Origin: a virus
Taxonomy: Duplodnaviria; Caudoviricetes
Virus record (IMG/VR): IMGVR_UViG_3300034170_000025
Coordinates: 1 to 58,179 of that record
Length of the DNA: 58,179 nucleotides
Strand: one strand, 5' to 3'
Shown piece after piece: positions 2-53,675 of this stretch. Under the pieces are notes generated by a model that was not told the DNA's origin, did not search any database, and saw nothing but the letters and a program-made list of their open reading frames with translations. The number at the start of each line of letters is the position of its first letter. Positions within the stretch are counted from its first letter, which is position 1. A program made the translations under genes and the position numbers.

Positions 2-1684
2 GAATGGCTGGAAGAAAATGGTGTTACAGAAGAAAAGGAGTACGAAGTTTTGGGTGCTGAGTTTAACGAAGATATTCACAACAAGATGAAGGAAGTGACA
101 ACCCTTGACTCTAAAGGCTATCGCGGAATCAAGAAGGAGACGACTAGCTTCTTTGGTGTACGTCATGAAATCAACACATCAAGTGGTGATGTTGCTGTCC
201 AGTACTACCCTTGCACAATGGAAGACGAAAACGATGCGGGGTTTATGCTCACAGGCTACAAGCGTCGTCAGCACCCAAAAGACTTTAAAGGAGCACTTGG
301 TGAGACTGGGCGTGAGTGTCAATTGTTTGGGCAATTCAGATTCCTGCGTCAACGCGGTAAGTACTGCCTGATTGTTGGTGGCGAAGTTGATCAGCTCTCT
401 GCGTACCAGATGTTGGCCGATCAGAACGCACGAAGTAACGCACAGAAGGGTACAGCATACGACCCAACTCCAGTTGTATCCCCAACTATCGGTGAGACTG
501 GATGTGAAAAGCAGATCGTGATGCAGTACGAGTGGTTTAACCGCTTCGAACGAATCATCGTCTGTATGGACAACGACGAAGCCGGTCGTAAAGCCACTGA
601 GCTAGTTTGTAAAGCTCTGCCGAAGGGTAAGGCATACGTCATGGAAATGTCCATGAAAGACCCAAACAGCTACATCTGGGACAAAGACAAGGGAGTTCCT
701 GTAAACAAGGAGTTCAACTTCGTTCAAGAGTTCTACAAGGCAGTGCCATACACGCCGAGTGGTATTGTTGGTTCGGGTAGCTTGATGGGGCTGATGAAGG
801 CAGCAGCGGTTATCCCTAAGATTCCTTTGCCACGGTACATGCACCGAGTGCAAGACATGATGGGCGGTGGTATCCCTCTGAAGGTTATCGTCAACCTGGG
901 TTCTGCATCTGGTACTGGTAAGTCTACGCACGTGGATGAATGTGTCTACCACTGGATTTTCAACAGTCCCCATAAGCCGGGTGTCCTGTCTCTTGAAAGC
1001 GACTGTGCACAATACGGTAACAAGATGCTCTCTCGCCACATCGGCAAGAAGATCGACTTGATGACGGACCAACAGAAGATCGCATTCTTCAACTCTCAAG
1101 AGGCCGAGGACGCTGCACAAGATTTGTTCTTCAAAGAGGATGGCAGTCACCGCTGGCACTTGATTGAGGAGCGTGACGGCTCTCTGGATGACATCAAAGA
1201 GAAGATCATGAACCTGATCATTGCATGTGAGTGCAAAGTGATCATCATTGACCCTCTCCAAGACATCATGGACGGTATGAGCAACGAAGAGCAGGCTGTC
1301 TTCATGAAGTGGCTGAAAGGCATGGTGAAGAGCCACGACGTTAGCTTCATTCTGATCAACCACGTTCGTAAGAGCGCTGGTGGCAGCAAGGCAAACTCTG
1401 CTGGTGCTGACCTGTTCGAAGAAGACTTCCAAGGGTCGTCTGCAATCTTTAAATCGGCTGCATGTAACTTGTTGTTCACACGTAACAAAGAGTCTCCTAA
1501 CGAGGTGGAGCGTAACATCACCAAGATGAAGATGACCAAGTGTCGTTGGACTGGTAATACAAGCCCGAACGCAGGTATGTACTACTACGATAACGCTACT
1601 CACACGGTTCATGATCTTGATGACTTCCTTGACAGGAACCCAGCTATGAAGGCTGAGTATGAGGCGCGTGACCGAGAGGAGTAA
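2..1684 (+). CDS. DNA primase-helicase (T7 gp4-like), 5' end outside window
   Basis: Frame is open from base 2. TOPRIM motifs (IVGGEVD, CMDNDEAG); SF4 helicase Walker A GSASGTGKS, Walker B IIIDPLQ, and INHVRK motif. Confidence 0.93.
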   Translation, partial: EWLEENGVTEEKEYEVLGAEFNEDIHNKMKEVTTLDSKGYRGIKKETTSFFGVRHEINTSSGDVAVQYYPCTMEDENDAGFMLTGYKRRQHPKDFKGALGETGRECQLFGQFRFLRQRGKYCLIVGGEVDQLSAYQMLADQNARSNAQKGTAYDPTPVVSPTIGETGCEKQIVMQYEWFNRFERIIVCMDNDEAGRKATELVCKALPKGKAYVMEMSMKDPNSYIWDKDKGVPVNKEFNFVQEFYKAVPYTPSGIVGSGSLMGLMKAAAVIPKIPLPRYMHRVQDMMGGGIPLKVIVNLGSASGTGKSTHVDECVYHWIFNSPHKPGVLSLESDCAQYGNKMLSRHIGKKIDLMTDQQKIAFFNSQEAEDAAQDLFFKEDGSHRWHLIEERDGSLDDIKEKIMNLIIACECKVIIIDPLQDIMDGMSNEEQAVFMKWLKGMVKSHDVSFILINHVRKSAGGSKANSAGADLFEEDFQGSSAIFKSAACNLLFTRNKESPNEVERNITKMKMTKCRWTGNTSPNAGMYYYDNATHTVHDLDDFLDRNPAMKAEYEARDREE

Positions 1685-22078: not shown

Positions 22079-23119
22079 ATGTTGCTTATCGGCTCACGTG
22101 CTTTGGTAGCAAACAACCCTGAATTGGAAGGCACTCGTAAGTGTGTCGACTGGGACTATATCTGCACCTTGGATCAGTTTAAAGCTTGGCATAAGGCTAA
22201 CAAAGACAATCTGCAATTCGCTGTGCCAACTCAAGGTGGCAAGTACTACCATGCACGTGACAAAGACGGTATGAACTACGAGTTTGAGTTGGCTTGGCCG
22301 GGTACGTCTGCTGAGGATTTACTCAAGCACTACGGCCTACTTGACCATGTGTACAAGCCTGAGATTGGACCTGTGCCAGCAATCAATCCCGACCTGTTGA
22401 TCATCAAGCTGAGCCACCGCTACAAACGTAACTCGCCACACTTCCTCAAAACTATGAGTGATATCAAGTATCTTCGTGAAAAGGTTGGTGCTGAATTCTT
22501 TGAGAAGTTCATGCAGAATGGCATCAATGGCCCTATCATGGCAAAGCGTGAAGCTGAGTCCTACGACTACGCACACCCAAAGCTGAACGTTAGCTCGAAA
22601 GAGTTCTTCAATGGTGATGGCGTACAGTATGTGTACAACCATGACAGTATTCACTTGGCTGTAGCGATCACTCAGGAGTGGGACCAACCTGAAATCCAAG
22701 ATAACTACGACCATCACCCTGTGCCTGCATACACTTTCTATATGAAAGATGGCTCTGAGGTGATGACCTCGAAAGAGAAGTTCATGTCAGTGCATGAGTC
22801 TATACGTCTATACGGCGTCTATGAAGAATCCTGTGTGCTCGCTCTAGAGCGTTCCCAGATTCCCCACAACATGATGCCAACTATGGATGGCTCTGTGTGG
22901 TTCGATCGGTGCCGGAGTGGGCCATCACCACGATGGAGCTTTGAGATGGCTCTCATGAAGGTGTGTACATCTATTACGTCTGGTTGGTTTCGTGAGTACG
23001 CTTGGGAAAATTACCAGAAAGTGCTTGACCTGTACAACGAACTGGGTGAGAATGACTACATCGAACGGTTCACCAAGAACCAACATTTACTGACACCATA
23101 CAATGGAGAGAAATACTGA
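22079..23119 (+). CDS. Putative Pol-beta superfamily nucleotidyltransferase
   Basis: N-terminal hG[S] and DxD signature: LLIGSRAL...VDWDYI. Confidence 0.6.
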   Translation: MLLIGSRALVANNPELEGTRKCVDWDYICTLDQFKAWHKANKDNLQFAVPTQGGKYYHARDKDGMNYEFELAWPGTSAEDLLKHYGLLDHVYKPEIGPVPAINPDLLIIKLSHRYKRNSPHFLKTMSDIKYLREKVGAEFFEKFMQNGINGPIMAKREAESYDYAHPKLNVSSKEFFNGDGVQYVYNHDSIHLAVAITQEWDQPEIQDNYDHHPVPAYTFYMKDGSEVMTSKEKFMSVHESIRLYGVYEESCVLALERSQIPHNMMPTMDGSVWFDRCRSGPSPRWSFEMALMKVCTSITSGWFREYAWENYQKVLDLYNELGENDYIERFTKNQHLLTPYNGEKY

Positions 23120-34741: not shown

Positions 34742-34960
34742 ATGGCAAAGCGTTTGATCCACACCGAAACCCACACCACCGGACTTGGGATTGTTCACAC
34801 TGCTAAGGTGTATCGTGATAGTGAGTGGAACGAGTGGCAAGTGGTTTTTGCTCGTGACCGTAACACGAACTACAAGGCGAGCTATCACGCCGGTGATAAG
34901 GCAGACGCCATTGATACAGCCAAGTATCACATTCATCGTATGTCCAAACAGTTCGCATAA
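34742..34960 (+). CDS. Hypothetical protein
   Basis: AKVYRDSEWNEWQV...YH..DK.DAIDTA. Confidence 0.7.
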   Translation: MAKRLIHTETHTTGLGIVHTAKVYRDSEWNEWQVVFARDRNTNYKASYHAGDKADAIDTAKYHIHRMSKQFA

Positions 34961-35049
34961 TCAGGGGTCACACATGATCATCACCATTATCGAACTGGCC
35001 CTGGCCGCTTTCATCATCGTCGGCCTCTATAAGCTGTGGAGCGTGTAAC

Positions 35050-35313
35050 ATGATCTTCGCAACTGTCCTTAGCCTGTGCATGTCCGCATCATACAGCGAC
35101 TGTAACGACTACATTGTCGACGTCGCCCCAACAAGCAAAGACTGTAAAGTCAACCTTATCAACCACTCCAAGCGTATGGCTAATGTGTGGGCTCTCGATT
35201 CACTGCCTGCCCTGGCTAGCTTCTTGAAAGAGTTTCACATTGTAGAACAAGTCGAGGATATCGCAAGCTACGACTACACTTGTCAACCCATCGCTGATAA
35301 GGATGTTCCTTAG
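35050..35313 (+). CDS. YebW/DUF1482-like small Cys-containing exported protein
   Basis: IFATVLSLC...C.DYIVD...DC...YTCQ. Confidence 0.55.
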   Translation: MIFATVLSLCMSASYSDCNDYIVDVAPTSKDCKVNLINHSKRMANVWALDSLPALASFLKEFHIVEQVEDIASYDYTCQPIADKDVP

Positions 35314-35334
35314 AGCTTGTAGTCGTTGAACATG

Positions 35335-35358
35335 AGCCCGCCATGAGCGGGCCTTTTC
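35335..35358 (+). terminator. Intrinsic terminator closing the early block
   Basis: GCCCGC-CATGA-GCGGGC followed by CTTTT. Confidence 0.7.
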
Positions 35359-35416
35359 ATTCCTATCAACATGAGCCAAATTCAAGTTGCTTGCTGTGAA
35401 CATGAATCTAATTCGT

Positions 35417-35445
35417 TTGACAGGTTTTCATTCGCACGGTACAAT
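35417..35445 (+). promoter_or_regulatory. Consensus sigma70 promoter facing an ORF-less region
   Basis: TTGACA-17-TACAAT. Confidence 0.75.
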
Positions 35446-35463
35446 ACCTTAAGAGCTTTACCT

Positions 35464-36202
35464 TTAAGCGACAGCTTAAGGAAGTAATCCGATAGCTATA
35501 AAACATAATAACAAAACTCCTAAAGAATATCAACCCATAGCTTCGCTATAAGGGATTAAACCTTATGACCTTCGGTCATGTAGTTTGCACGGATCAAAAA
35601 GCGATAGCTTTTGTGGTTATCAATTGTAAAATATCTATAACATAAACCCCTAAAAACTATCTCAAAACCTAAGCCAAGGCTTAGAAGGTTAAACCCTCAG
35701 ACCGAAGGTCTAAGAAGGTCAAGAGCGGGCTGTAAGCCCCGTATTACAAGCGTTAGAGGCTATCCTACCCAATGCTACGCATTGAAGAGAAAACCCCTCA
35801 AATCAACGCTAAACCCCTTTCTAGCTCTCTGCCTCGCGTGGGTGAGCCCCGTTAGGGGCGAGACACTAAGCGAAGCGCTCTCACTTTCAGTGAATTGTCA
35901 AGAACTTCCTTAGATCATTACGCTATGTCCTACGGACAAACAGTTCTAACACCATGAGGGCAAATCCTCCCCAGTTGGCACACTTCTAGCAAGGCATATT
36001 GCATGCCAGGAATATCACCCCCTAGAGGGACAACCCCCATGGGCATGCTCGCCCTATGCACACACCCCTAACATGAATAACTCTCATGAGAGAATGAATC
36101 ACACATGACAATACATCCTATGTGCGAGCAATCCTACATGTTAATCATTCTCATGTGTGCATACGCACAAGTACAGAGCCACACGCTCTAATGCGAAGCA
36201 TT
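35464..36202. repeat. Array of short palindromes with GNA/GNNA-type loops
   Basis: At least 12 stems of 5-7 bp, nearly all with 3-4 nt loops (listed in findings). Confidence 0.8.
35976..36008. promoter_or_regulatory. Two opposed sigma54 (-24/-12)-like sites
   Basis: TGGCACACTTCTAGCA (+) and TGGCATGCAATATGCC (-), both GG-N10-GC. Confidence 0.45.
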
Positions 36203-36385
36203 GAAAGGCTAGCCCCTGGAGGGTGATACACACTCATGAGGATAAACCCTTGCCGGTGTGACCCTTTGAGGGAGATGTTCCACGTGGAGCAAATCTCTTT
36301 TATGGTGGAACGTTTGATGGGGCGAGCCCTCCCTAATAGGATTGATTCCCCTATGGGAGTGACTTTCCAATGAGAAGTGTTCTCG
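36139..36385. promoter_or_regulatory. Fur-box-like palindromes
   Basis: TGTTAAT-C-ATTCTCA (36139), TGAGAAG-T-GTTCTCG (36371); weaker copies at 36072 and 36089. Confidence 0.5.
36276..36291. promoter_or_regulatory. parS: parS-like site
   Basis: TGTTCCACGTGGAGCA, one mismatch to TGTTCCACGTGGAACA. Confidence 0.6.
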
Positions 36386-36443
36386 TTATTTTAGAATTAC
36401 GAGCGGCCAGCTAGTGGGCCTTGTGTTGTCGTTAAGCACCTCT

Positions 36444-36492
36444 CGCTCAAAACCGGTCCTGCCAGACCCACGCTCAAAACTGGCTCCGCCAC
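36444..36492. repeat. Direct repeat CGCTCAAAACYGGYYCYGCCA, two copies
   Basis: Copies at 36444 and 36471, 27-bp period. Confidence 0.75.
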
Positions 36493-36645
36493 ATCCCTTT
36501 ATATTTTCCTATGTCAAGGTGGAACACTCCGTCAAGTGGTGTTTATTTTTGGCGGCGGGATTTATTTTTGTGGACAAAATGTTGGTAGTATTGTAGAATT
36601 AGTAAAGGAGATACATACACTAAACCCCTATAGGGAGATTAAACA

Positions 36646-37059
36646 ATGGCAACAATTGATGAACAGTACACACTAGTTTCGCAGCTTGGCATTTACGGTG
36701 CCATCAACCAGGGTGCGTTTCAAAACACCCTTGATGGTAAAGATGCTCCGCCAGCTTTCCATATCGTACACAGAGGAAGCATGGCTACCTTCACCCCTTC
36801 TGAAAGTGATAATGGTGCATACACTGTGTTTGACTACGCAGGTGATATGGTGATTACACTTCCAGCTTCGCTGTCTGCACCAGAGCTAAACCCATTTACA
36901 ATGTTTGTAGTTAACACTCTTGGAAGGATTGACTTCGTGTGCGAGACTCCCTTCATTGGGTATGCTCCTCACGTTGAGCAGAACGTTACATGTGGGTTGC
37001 TGAGAGGTATGACCAACTGGTATGCTTCAGGGACAAACAACAAAGCAGAGCTTAGCTAA
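36646..37059 (+). CDS. Hypothetical beta-rich protein, possibly virion-associated
   Basis: GGGAG SD; promoter TGGACA-17-TAGAAT at 36571-36599; VITLP...WYASG. Confidence 0.7.
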   Translation: MATIDEQYTLVSQLGIYGAINQGAFQNTLDGKDAPPAFHIVHRGSMATFTPSESDNGAYTVFDYAGDMVITLPASLSAPELNPFTMFVVNTLGRIDFVCETPFIGYAPHVEQNVTCGLLRGMTNWYASGTNNKAELS

Positions 37060-37850
37060 TGACTCCGGTTATTTCACAACTGTTCAGCAGTTGCAGGGAG
37101 AGGAATCTTCGCACTCTGGACGATAATGTCCCTGATGAAAACTACCTGTTCTTGGTGACAAATTATGTTCCAGATATTGGGTCTTCTATATGGAAGTCAT
37201 TTGATAACTCTGTGCAGATGAATCCACTAACAGGGTGGACAGGCTTCTACTACACTTGGATGCCTGATCGTTCTATCTTTGCTGGATTCAGAACTCAGAA
37301 GTTTGGGTATGGCTTTGTGCACCCTAGTGCAACGTCCAGTGGAGAGCTTTATCTGAGAGTGCAGATTGGTATTCCAAAAGCCCCAGCGGCGTCTGGTCAG
37401 TGGTGGGCGTACTCTGAGAATCCTATTGTGGTGATCAAGGATAACGTCGATCAGAGCCTTAAGCTGTCTCTTTCTTGGCTGTATAATGGTGACACTAACG
37501 CTGCTACGAGAGACTTGAGTAGAACGTTGGTTCTTAAGTTTGTTGATAGGGATGGTGTAGACAGGACGTTATCTGCTGAGTATGTTTTCCCAGTTGGTGA
37601 GGAGTATATGAACATTGATATCAAAGTGTTCCTTCCTAAAGATGGTCCTGCCCAACTTGTGGCGGCTCCACTGGAAACAACAAACCCTCCAATCGTAAAC
37701 ACTTCTCTTACAGTTGGTAGAGGGTACTACGATATACAGCCTGATCAAACTCTTGCAGTAAACTCCTACGATGGTGTAACACCTACAAACTGTCTGACAC
37801 GTTACATGAGAGTTGGTATTGGTAACAAGATTACAACAGCTAGACCATGA
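37059..37850 (+). CDS. Hypothetical beta-rich protein
   Basis: TAATG coupling; ends at a bidirectional terminator. Confidence 0.7.
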   Translation: MTPVISQLFSSCRERNLRTLDDNVPDENYLFLVTNYVPDIGSSIWKSFDNSVQMNPLTGWTGFYYTWMPDRSIFAGFRTQKFGYGFVHPSATSSGELYLRVQIGIPKAPAASGQWWAYSENPIVVIKDNVDQSLKLSLSWLYNGDTNAATRDLSRTLVLKFVDRDGVDRTLSAEYVFPVGEEYMNIDIKVFLPKDGPAQLVAAPLETTNPPIVNTSLTVGRGYYDIQPDQTLAVNSYDGVTPTNCLTRYMRVGIGNKITTARP

Positions 37851-52863: not shown

Positions 52864-53259
52864 TTAAAGTTTAACAGAGAAACGGTTTTTCATTTTAGCC
52901 ATTGTGTCTTCTGGTACACCATGAATCGAAGAATTCCCATGACGGTTTTCTACCACCAAGGTGGTTACTTTATAGCCGTGCTTAGCTGCCAGCTCAAGAT
53001 AAGGCTTCAACTCCTTCTCAGTGGTGAAGGTGTTGGACACCACGATATCCATGAATAAATCCTCCATGTTTTGACGTACTTTATCCTGACACCAGTTATG
53101 AGCCTTGGCTACTCGTTCAGGCTTCCAGTCATAGACACCCTCTTCATTATAGTGGAACATGTCAGCCTCGTAGTGCCTACCAAGTAAGTTGGCAGCAAGC
53201 ATTTCAGCGAAAGTGGACTTGCCAGAACCAGGCAAGCCACGAATAAGATAAAGGTTCAC
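52864..53259 (-). CDS. P-loop kinase (polynucleotide kinase-like, AAA_33)
   Basis: LIRGLPGSGKST, EAD, AHNWC, VSNTF, HGVP. Confidence 0.85.
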   Translation of the reverse strand: MNLYLIRGLPGSGKSTFAEMLAANLLGRHYEADMFHYNEEGVYDWKPERVAKAHNWCQDKVRQNMEDLFMDIVVSNTFTTEKELKPYLELAAKHGYKVTTLVVENRHGNSSIHGVPEDTMAKMKNRFSVKL

Positions 53260-53675
53260 TTGTTCAGAGCCATGATCAGCAACTCACGTGCCATCTCTGG
53301 AGTGATCACTCCTTGCAGGACACCTTTCAACTCGCTACGCAGTCGCGACTGCTCTGTTTGTACAGCCTGAAACACAAGTGATTGCACTTTCTCTGCCAGT
53401 GCCTTATCCATAGAAGCTTCGATAGTGGTTTTGACCACGTTATCAATCGCCTTCAGCATGTTCGGGTCTTTGACAGTGTAACGTGGGTTTGCCCAGTATC
53501 CATTGTCCTTCAGCATTTCATTGACAGCACGCTTCACAGCGTCGTCAACGTTAGACTGTACAACATCAGAGCGGATGTTCTTCAACACCTCGTTCCCAAT
53601 TTCCACTTGTAATTCGGCGTTATCAGCGATCAATGCTCGCAAGCCAGCAGTGTCCAAACGCATTTTGATAGTCAT
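53256..53675 (-). CDS. Helical hypothetical protein
   Basis: GGAGG SD before ATG 53675. Confidence 0.7.
   Translation of the reverse strand: MTIKMRLDTAGLRALIADNAELQVEIGNEVLKNIRSDVVQSNVDDAVKRAVNEMLKDNGYWANPRYTVKDPNMLKAIDNVVKTTIEASMDKALAEKVQSLVFQAVQTEQSRLRSELKGVLQGVITPEMARELLIMALNK

Follow-up and report, generated by a model that had tools for sequence, protein, structure and literature searches.

The window analysed here is the 58,179-base virus record IMGVR_UViG_3300034170_000025, a single contig with a completeness rating of 59% whose nearest public relative is Pseudomonas phage PPSC2, followed by phiPsa374-like phages (genus Otagovirus). By its sequence, it is a contig of an Otagovirus-like Pseudomonas phage. 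Up to ~35.3 kb its genes lie on the + strand; beyond ~38 kb, most are on the - strand. Between these arms, positions 35488-36645 hold no open reading frame (ORF) of more than 60 aa, and the middle of this gap (35976-36385) carries the elements considered here: a palindrome resembling the chromosomal centromere site parS of Pseudomonas, a face-to-face pair of sigma-54-like elements, and a Fur-like box (Table 1). A first-pass annotation had described this stretch as ORF-less and without an adjacent gene obviously regulated by its sites, and the surrounding DNA agrees with both descriptions. Absent from that account is the homology of the region to phage direct terminal repeats (DTRs), which changes which roles are plausible.

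Table 1. Features in and around the ORF-less gap, in window coordinates unless a phage is named.
Feature	Position	Strand	Remarks
Intrinsic-terminator-like hairpin GCCCGC-CATGA-GCGGGC with T-rich tail	35336-35362	+	Ends the + strand gene arm
Sigma-70-type promoter-like site TTGACA-N17-TACAAT	35417-35445	+	11/12; points into the ORF-less region
Stem-loop CAATGC-TAC-GCATTG	35770-35784		Stem kept in 13/13 aligned phages; compensatory changes, 7 stem sequences
Invariant 13-mer CTAAACCCCTTTC	35809-35821		~47 nt outside the left DTR boundary; identity 1.00 in 11 representatives
Conserved boundary 12-mer ACTAAGCGAAGC	35865-35876		Left DTR boundary (35868/35869) of phiPsa374, REC and M5.1 lies inside
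Putative DTR, ~566 bp	35868-36433		Single (collapsed) copy in the contig; placed by homology only
Sigma-54-like element TGGCACACTTCTAGCA, TGGCAC-N5-TAGCA (GG-N10-GC)	35976-35991	+	1 mismatch to 15-mer consensus
Opposed sigma-54-like element TGGCATGCAATATGCC, TGGCATG-N4-ATGCC (GG-N10-GC)	35993-36008	-	2 mismatches to 15-mer consensus
Variable DTR centre	36076-36245		Three CTCATG-type units (~36080, ~36148, ~36230); relatives have 2-3 copies of other, lineage-specific repeats
12-bp palindrome CTCTCATGAGAG	36081-36092		Within the variable DTR centre
Fur-like 7-1-7 box TGTTAATCATTCTCA	36139-36153		12/14; only site at >=12/14 in the window
Palindrome AATGCGAAGCATTG	36190-36203		Second copy of the 35770 hairpin type; common to PPSC2
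parS-like palindrome TGTTCCACGTGGAGCA	36276-36291		15/16 to Pseudomonas parS consensus TGTTCCACGTGGAACA
Half-parS heptamer GTGGAAC	36305-36311	+	Not conserved in PPSC2
Right-end motif TTATTTT..TTACGAGCGGCC..GGGCCTTGTGTTGTCGTT	36376-36433		Conserved, identity 0.56-0.65; five phage records end here
Two tandem 27-nt units	36444-36496	+	Just outside the DTR; one unit missing in a 90-kb related metagenome contig (run X1)
Sigma-70-type promoter-like site TGGACA-N17-TAGAAT	36571-36599	+	Upstream of ORFs 36646-37059 and 37059-37850
Second parS-like site CGTTCCACGTGGAACA	REC1 22139-22154; REC 93123-93138; M5.1 93205-93220

A distant BLAST search with positions 35400-36650 matched 48 phage records, and the phiPsa matches overlap 'DTR' annotations at both record ends. 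Phage phiPsa374, described as virulent, has a DTR of 526 bp, placed with PhageTerm at coordinates 1-526 and 97762-98287 (PMC9796965), and that of the otagovirus UNO-G1W1 measures 544 bp (PMC11256812). In a four-way alignment, the start of the phiPsa374 repeat falls at window position 35869, within the boundary 12-mer, which is kept in every relative examined (identity 0.95-0.98). The records of REC and M5.1 hold the repeat at both ends; duplicated parS coordinates give lengths of 548 and 547 bp, and both repeats begin at this same motif, as does that of phiPsa374. On the other side, the record ends of phiPsa374, phiPsa267, phiPsa300, phiPsa315, and M5.1 align to window position ~36433. Because of this homology to known boundaries and record ends, ~35868-36433 is predicted to be a DTR, forming both physical genome ends as well as each concatemer junction. 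It shares with experimentally inferred Otagovirus DTRs both boundary motifs, a similar length, and a position between convergent gene arms, which also meet at the terminal repeat in phiPsa374. It differs from them in its centre, which is nearly unrelated between lineages (mean identity 0.28), and in the two extra + strand ORFs that follow it. The parS-like site and the sigma-54-like pair lie wholly within the putative repeat.

The palindrome TGTTCCACGTGGAGCA is a 16-bp site of the tGTTNCACGTGAAACa class with an intact CACGTG core. The 15/16 match reported at first pass was confirmed, and the window has no other match to TGTTCCACGTGGAACA when up to 3 mismatches are allowed, a loose setting at which 28 of 100 shuffled sequences gave a match as well; at up to 1 mismatch, the expectation from base composition is 0.00065 per window. 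In P. aeruginosa, parS2 and parS3 match this consensus perfectly, parS1 and parS4 carry one mismatch and are nonetheless high-affinity sites sufficient for segregation, and the P. putida sites follow the same consensus (PMC4368675, PMC7022226). A single parS together with parAB stabilises an unstable plasmid, and ParB also binds the half-sites GTTCCAC and GTTTCAC (PMC4368675, PMC7022226). Half-parS heptamers (GTGGAAC) are mildly clustered here, with 3 of the window's 13 within 36277-36525 (250 bp); this clustering was rejected as evidence, as the two extra heptamers are not conserved in PPSC2.

A BLAST search of the phage collection with the palindrome as a short query recovered only PPSC2 among the relatives and was too insensitive for 16-mers; whole records were therefore scanned for the pattern at up to 2 mismatches, covering 15 Otagovirus-type records and four outgroups, with a reversed-pattern control. 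The site was found in 11 of the 15, each match having exactly one mismatch. PPSC2, psageK4, PE09, and PHB09 have one site each, REC1 has two, phiPsa374, phiPsa267, phiPsa300, and phiPsa315 have two each (one per DTR copy), and REC and M5.1 have three each. None of the outgroups KIL2, PAK_P1, PAK_P3, and JG004, which include Pakpunavirus and Nankokuvirus relatives, has a site at this threshold, and the reversed pattern gave no match in any scanned record. The conservation check proposed in the first-pass annotation thus comes out in favour of its parS claim. Two more IMG/VR relatives, located through the DTR anchor, also bear the site. Four single-mismatch variants occur, deviating at position 14 (window and PPSC2), position 5 (phiPsa group), position 12 (REC, REC1, and one IMG/VR contig), or position 16 (M5.1, PHB09, and one IMG/VR contig). 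Among bearers, identity is 0.89 over the 16-mer compared with 0.24 over the left and 0.47 over the right 40 nt, a contrast that is partly circular, as these representatives were picked for the site, but that persists in the unselected set of all 11 representatives (0.67 versus 0.23 and 0.43). Moreover, the 35770 hairpin, 500 bp upstream, keeps its pairing only, whereas in the palindrome it is the sequence that is kept, a sign of sequence-specific recognition and not of a structural role. Judged by these comparisons, selection maintains a centromere sequence of the host type in the DTRs of most of this genus.

The usual location of the site is the same DTR position across bearers, 122-146 bp from the right boundary in most. 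In PHB09, it lies at another place in the repeat. REC, REC1, and M5.1 carry the second site CGTTCCACGTGGAACA ~5.2 kb upstream of a DTR copy, with no counterpart in the window; in REC1, the only record checked, it occupies the start of a 256-bp intergenic spacer, directly behind the stop codon of a gene of 1.46 kb. As for details of individual repeats, PHB09 has no TGGCA dyad, and its parS-like site, ~180 nt after the anchor, is just downstream of the usual dyad place; both PHB09 and Psxphi15 have a TGTCAAC-type sequence at the usual parS position. In contigs from three sequencing runs, the few differences listed inside the DTR (36018, 36131, and 36245) leave the parS-like site and the TGGCA arms untouched; this comparison held 38 further differences beyond those listed.

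Which protein would bind the palindrome was approached through the gene content of these phages. The ParB_N domain (PF02195) had no match in five complete relatives or in the window, while the control search was positive in 11 of 14 genomes, so a self-contained parA-parB-parS cassette, with its ParB gene on the same replicon, is not what these phages carry. Phylogenetic profiling of ORFs of at least 50 aa, in five parS-positive versus four parS-negative genomes, yielded no genuine phage ORF present in all of the former yet absent from all of the latter. The sole candidate, of 52 aa, was discarded as spurious, being out of frame in PPSC2_56 and detectable in parS-negative phages (E 1e-5 to 1e-6). 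Because neither a phage ParB gene nor a phage ORF that tracks the site was found, host ParB appears to be its likeliest and simplest ligand.

The second conserved element is the sigma-54-like pair. The two opposed TGGCA-N-GC sites with exact GG-N10-GC spacing noted at first pass are present as described, and they recur at fixed offsets from the boundary 12-mer in the aligned DTRs, the + arm at offset 111 in 11/13 and the - arm at offset 128 in 9/13; both arms occur together in nine, and two more have the + arm alone. Across relatives, TGGCATG and TGC of the - arm are invariant and five spacer positions vary. In REC1 and M5.1 this arm reads TGGCATGTTATTTGCT, and elsewhere TGGCATGCTGTTTGCC and similar, near-perfect forms of the sigma-54 consensus; the strict pattern TGGCAY-N5-TTGCW is present in REC1, M5.1, Psxphi15, and one IMG/VR contig. 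Genome-wide, at spacing N5, 15 copies of the strict pattern are present in five genomes (phiPsa374, REC1, PPSC2, Psxphi15, and the window), versus a mean of ~2.7 at nine other spacings; as these genomes are related, the counts are not independent. The DNA signature of a sigma-54 promoter (-24 GG, -12 GC, TGGCAC-N5-TTGCW, exact spacing) is found in the repeat, with the mismatches given in Table 1. The other hallmark, an AAA+ activator combined with a downstream transcription unit, is not found in the phage: the Sigma54_activat domain (PF00158) had no match in five relatives, and no ORF of more than 60 aa lies downstream of either arm. A host activator may conceivably act in its place.

Other observations also weigh against a functional sigma-54 site. 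The window's own - arm has ATGC rather than TTGC; when up to 2 mismatches are allowed, matches to this loose consensus occur in the window at background frequency (78 versus 66.0 +/- 8.6, with 11 of 100 shuffles reaching 78); and most exact genome-wide matches in phiPsa374 are intragenic, two of them antisense. Thus, of the outcomes that the first-pass annotation had named as refuting, matching at background frequency did occur, whereas conservation holds in 9/13 DTRs. The arms also face each other and overlap, and because of this overlap both could not be occupied at once. The pair resembles sigma-54 promoters and non-productive sites in its TGGCAY-N5-(T/A)TGC(T/C) form, GG-N10-GC spacing, and invariant blocks around a free spacer, and differs from sigma-54 promoters in being opposed and overlapping, without a downstream gene or a phage activator gene, and in a terminal repeat. 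Sites of like quality in E. coli were validated by chromatin immunoprecipitation, with the holoenzyme bound in an inactive state, and many such bound sites have no transcript (PMC4591121). Binding of sigma-54 to the pair is plausible, if somewhat short of an even chance, and promoter activity is doubtful. As separate observations, the window's only exact TGGCAY-N5-TTGCW lies at 53278-53293 (-), ending 19 nt upstream of the start of ORF 52864-53259 (-), and in the phiPsa374 DTR an exact consensus, TGGCATTACCGTTGCA at 366-381 (-), adjoins the parS-like site and arises where the third copy of the lineage repeat joins GCCA.

The Fur-like boxes fared differently. Where two to four had been claimed, only TGTTAATCATTCTCA is a reasonable box, and the others reach at most 12/19. 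Against the 19-mer GATAATGATAATCATTATC, TGTTAATCATTCTCA itself scores 13/19, a level at or above which the window has 26 strand-hits, with four elsewhere at 14/19. It is not conserved in any of the 12 aligned relatives, and it sits in the middle copy of the window's CTCATG-type triple repeat. A good match that is conserved and stands above background is thus not found, and the Fur reading was rejected for the single box, its near-background quality, and its lack of conservation; the boxes are most readily explained as the form that the DTR repeats take in this lineage. Of the three-factor cluster that was first described, the parS-like and sigma-54-like parts are conserved and the Fur part falls away. 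Similarly, the idea of a landing pad for host proteins keeps its natural candidates, as the phage has neither ParB nor an activator, and loses Fur.

Taken together, these findings favour a reading to which we assign a probability of roughly 0.58: the gap holds a DTR with a selected host-type parS on which host ParB would load, accompanied by a sigma-54-like pair and by lineage-specific repeats. The palindrome at 36276-36291 would be a selected copy of the host chromosome centromere, at which host ParB could nucleate, loading and spreading once the phage DNA is circular or concatemeric. The host ParABS system, and possibly SMC, would thereby come to handle the phage genome. Roles for such an arrangement are speculative. 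Phage DNA might be positioned in the cell or inherited, for instance in carrier-state cells that grow slowly; the concatemer junction might be organised, or condensin recruited to it; or ParB might damp the two sigma-70-type promoters close by, at 35417 and 36571. Close to the opposite DTR boundary, the face-to-face pair may hold sigma-54 holoenzyme as an inactive closed complex, and the likeliest ligand of the CTCATG-type repeats is a phage protein, for example one that acts in packaging or replication. A bolder version is offered tentatively and is a good deal less probable: virulent Pseudomonas phages with a host parS in the DTR and no ParB gene would pass their DNA to host ParABS/SMC, such that infecting or dormant genomes are positioned and inherited like a mini-chromosome, with a parked sigma-54 closed complex marking the other end of the repeat.

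Several points count against host ParB loading at a parS within a DTR. Four of the 15 relatives (16Q, Psxphi15, Kremar, and VCM) have no parS at up to 2 mismatches, and the site is therefore dispensable. The window's A14G variant is not among the P. aeruginosa sites given in PMC4368675. DTR status is assigned to this phage by homology alone, and the public runs containing it, three peat metagenome runs and one run with a small share, are available as contigs that bridge the region over 34800-37400 and give neither termini nor a depth step. Every ligand is likewise assigned from sequence, and a core phage protein common to all relatives could be the binder, as profiling excludes lineage-specific proteins only.

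This last point leads to the strongest of the other explanations, in which the palindrome and the TGGCA dyad are sites for a phage protein (terminase small subunit, end-binding protein, or replication protein) and their likeness to host sites is coincidental or convergent. We consider this a minority possibility, though one to be taken seriously. The sites do lie in the DNA that terminase has to recognise and cut, the terminal repeat, each 110-150 bp from a DTR boundary; the islands CTAAACCCCTTTC, ACTAAGCGAAGC, TGTCAAG, and the right-end motif match no known host site and are presumably phage signals; and with ~75% of phiPsa374 genes hypothetical (PMC9796965), an unrecognised DNA binder is possible. 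However, chance would place a parS match with at most 1 mismatch in such a window with an expectation of only ~0.00065, none of the four variants departs from the host consensus by more than one mismatch, and no phage ORF co-occurs with the site. Furthermore, the site has moved in PHB09, is duplicated 5.2 kb away in REC, REC1, and M5.1, and is lost in four relatives that retain the other DTR signals, all of which is unlike a fixed packaging signal. A loading site that works wherever it lies would account for these moves, extra copies, and losses better than would an architectural element fixed in place for terminase, and the same observations bear equally on the proposal that host ParB is not loaded at a centromere but serves as an architectural packaging cofactor at the concatemer junction, as IHF does for lambda terminase at cosB. 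Lambda cosB combines R sites with the IHF site I1, which the two to three lineage repeats and the conserved host-type site in the packaging region resemble, and most relatives have the site at a similar distance (122-146 bp) from the right boundary. Relocation in PHB09, the extra copy in REC, REC1, and M5.1, and loss in four relatives nevertheless suit a position-critical element poorly, and we regard this proposal as improbable.

Two further explanations appear very unlikely. The palindrome could act as a nucleic-acid structure, namely a terminator hairpin or cruciform, or the whole cluster could be a chance resemblance passed on by descent. A simple scan flags 36276-36291 plus AATCTCTTTT as terminator-like, the phiPsa374 DTR lies between convergent gene arms, and each single-transition variant retains a G-U pair on one strand. 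Yet the T-rich tail is missing in PPSC2, phiPsa374, and REC1, for which the terminator reading was rejected; true hairpins nearby vary by compensation, whereas the palindrome keeps its sequence; no Rfam family matched; and flanks at 0.24-0.47 against 0.89 for the site speak against neutral inheritance. The full model of the first-pass annotation, in which ParB, Fur, and sigma-54 share a landing pad that titrates regulators or shields or ratchets a DNA end, is put at similarly long odds. Two of its three site types are conserved and the window's best 7-1-7 Fur-like box does lie in the flagged stretch, but that box is single, scores 13/19 like 26 other strand-hits in the window, and is absent from the aligned relatives. 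In addition, ParB sliding clamps run off free DNA ends, which makes simple end shielding unlikely. Host ParB loading at a selected parS therefore stays our preferred reading.

Compared with the chromosomal parS sites of Pseudomonas (P. aeruginosa parS1-4 and P. putida), the phage site is the same 16-bp palindrome with one mismatch relative to TGTTCCACGTGGAACA, but it lies in the terminal repeat of a virulent phage rather than near oriC, and its mismatch at position 14 is unlisted in host sites. Centromere-like sites on phage genomes are likewise known from plasmid-prophage partition cassettes (P1 parABS, N15 sop) and from mycobacteriophage parABS, and presumably serve positioning or inheritance there. 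These systems belong to temperate phages with their own ParA and ParB and their own, non-chromosomal parS, whereas the window phage has a host-type site, no ParB_N gene, and a place in a family reported as virulent (PMC9796965). A staphylococcal phage with its own ParB has also been described (PMC10286716).

Host-factor sites in phage packaging DNA include the IHF site I1 in lambda cosB and those for IHF or HU at P1 pac. By analogy, the present locus would be another case of a host-type DNA-binding-protein site among phage-specific repeats in terminase-processed DNA; it would differ in that ParB is a CTP-dependent sliding clamp, in its long direct repeat terminus, and in the mobility and dispensability of the site. 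To our knowledge, the phages known to have centromere sites have all been temperate plasmid-prophages with a ParB of their own. Literature searches, which covered few subscription journals, turned up no virulent phage reported to carry a host-type parS in its terminal repeat; for parS or ParB in phages and for sigma-54 phage promoters they returned plasmid-prophage partition systems and passing mentions of host parS (PMC4309531 and a PAK_P3 Hi-C preprint). The available text of the phiPsa374 paper makes no mention of parS or promoters (PMC9796965).

If host ParB does load at this site, lytic phages regarded as strictly virulent could plug into the host segregation system. Such centromere mimicry by a lytic virus would offer a genetic handle on pseudolysogeny and a mutable cis-element for the positioning, condensation, and inheritance of phage DNA in normal infection as well as in carrier or pseudolysogenic states. 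The group includes several phages under development for biocontrol of Pseudomonas syringae, and the finding would affect how far such phages can be called 'virulent'. ParB would join the short list of host DNA-binding proteins used at phage genome ends, and the conserved sigma-54-like dyad would provide a second, independent handle of the same kind.

The anatomy of the repeat was derived from 13 aligned DTR regions, with identity values from 11 representatives. Conserved islands in these regions are CTAAACCCCTTTC, the boundary 12-mer, TGTCAAG, the TGGCA dyad, the parS-like palindrome, and the right-end motif. The repeats of the variable centre are three copies of TATATAGTGCAACGG in phiPsa374, three of GTGCGACCGA in phiPsa315, and two of TCTATATATAATGCG in PPSC2, and could be sites for terminase or a replication protein. 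Lineage repeats are spaced ~70-100 bp apart, the phiPsa374 copies lying at DTR offsets 189, 264, and 362 from the anchor. The density of CATG in the window peaks in the DTR centre, at 10 per 300 bp versus a mean of ~1.3.

Upstream of the DTR, the 35770-35784 stem-loop belongs to a chain of hairpins between the 35417-35445 promoter-like site and the repeat, which could be an untranslated RNA or a terminator cluster; REC1 shares this promoter-like element in the form TTGACG...TACAAT. An Rfam search of 35000-37000, at E up to 1, returned no family. The 36571 promoter-like site resembles in form the early-promoter consensus of PAK_P1-like phages (PMC4309531). Positions 36646-37850, 3' of the DTR, hold two + strand ORFs (137 and 263 aa) with this promoter-like site of their own, the second matching phrog_29136, of unknown function. 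Their position is taken by - strand genes in phiPsa374 and PPSC2 and by a + strand coding sequence of 267 aa in Psxphi15. More generally, ORFs flanking the gap match PHROG families of unknown function, with one weak 'tail protein' match (E = 3.3e-4), and a Pfam search of them gave no match.

Perfect parS-type 16-mers were also sought across IMG/VR, where at least 119 viral contigs carry one, a count that by rough estimate is not clearly above chance for a collection of this size; none of those listed is homologous to the window. Among the contigs listed, some have clusters of three to five parS-type sites, and several (L049, L055, L066, L075, L076, L077, and L090) have a site ~250 bp or less from a contig end.

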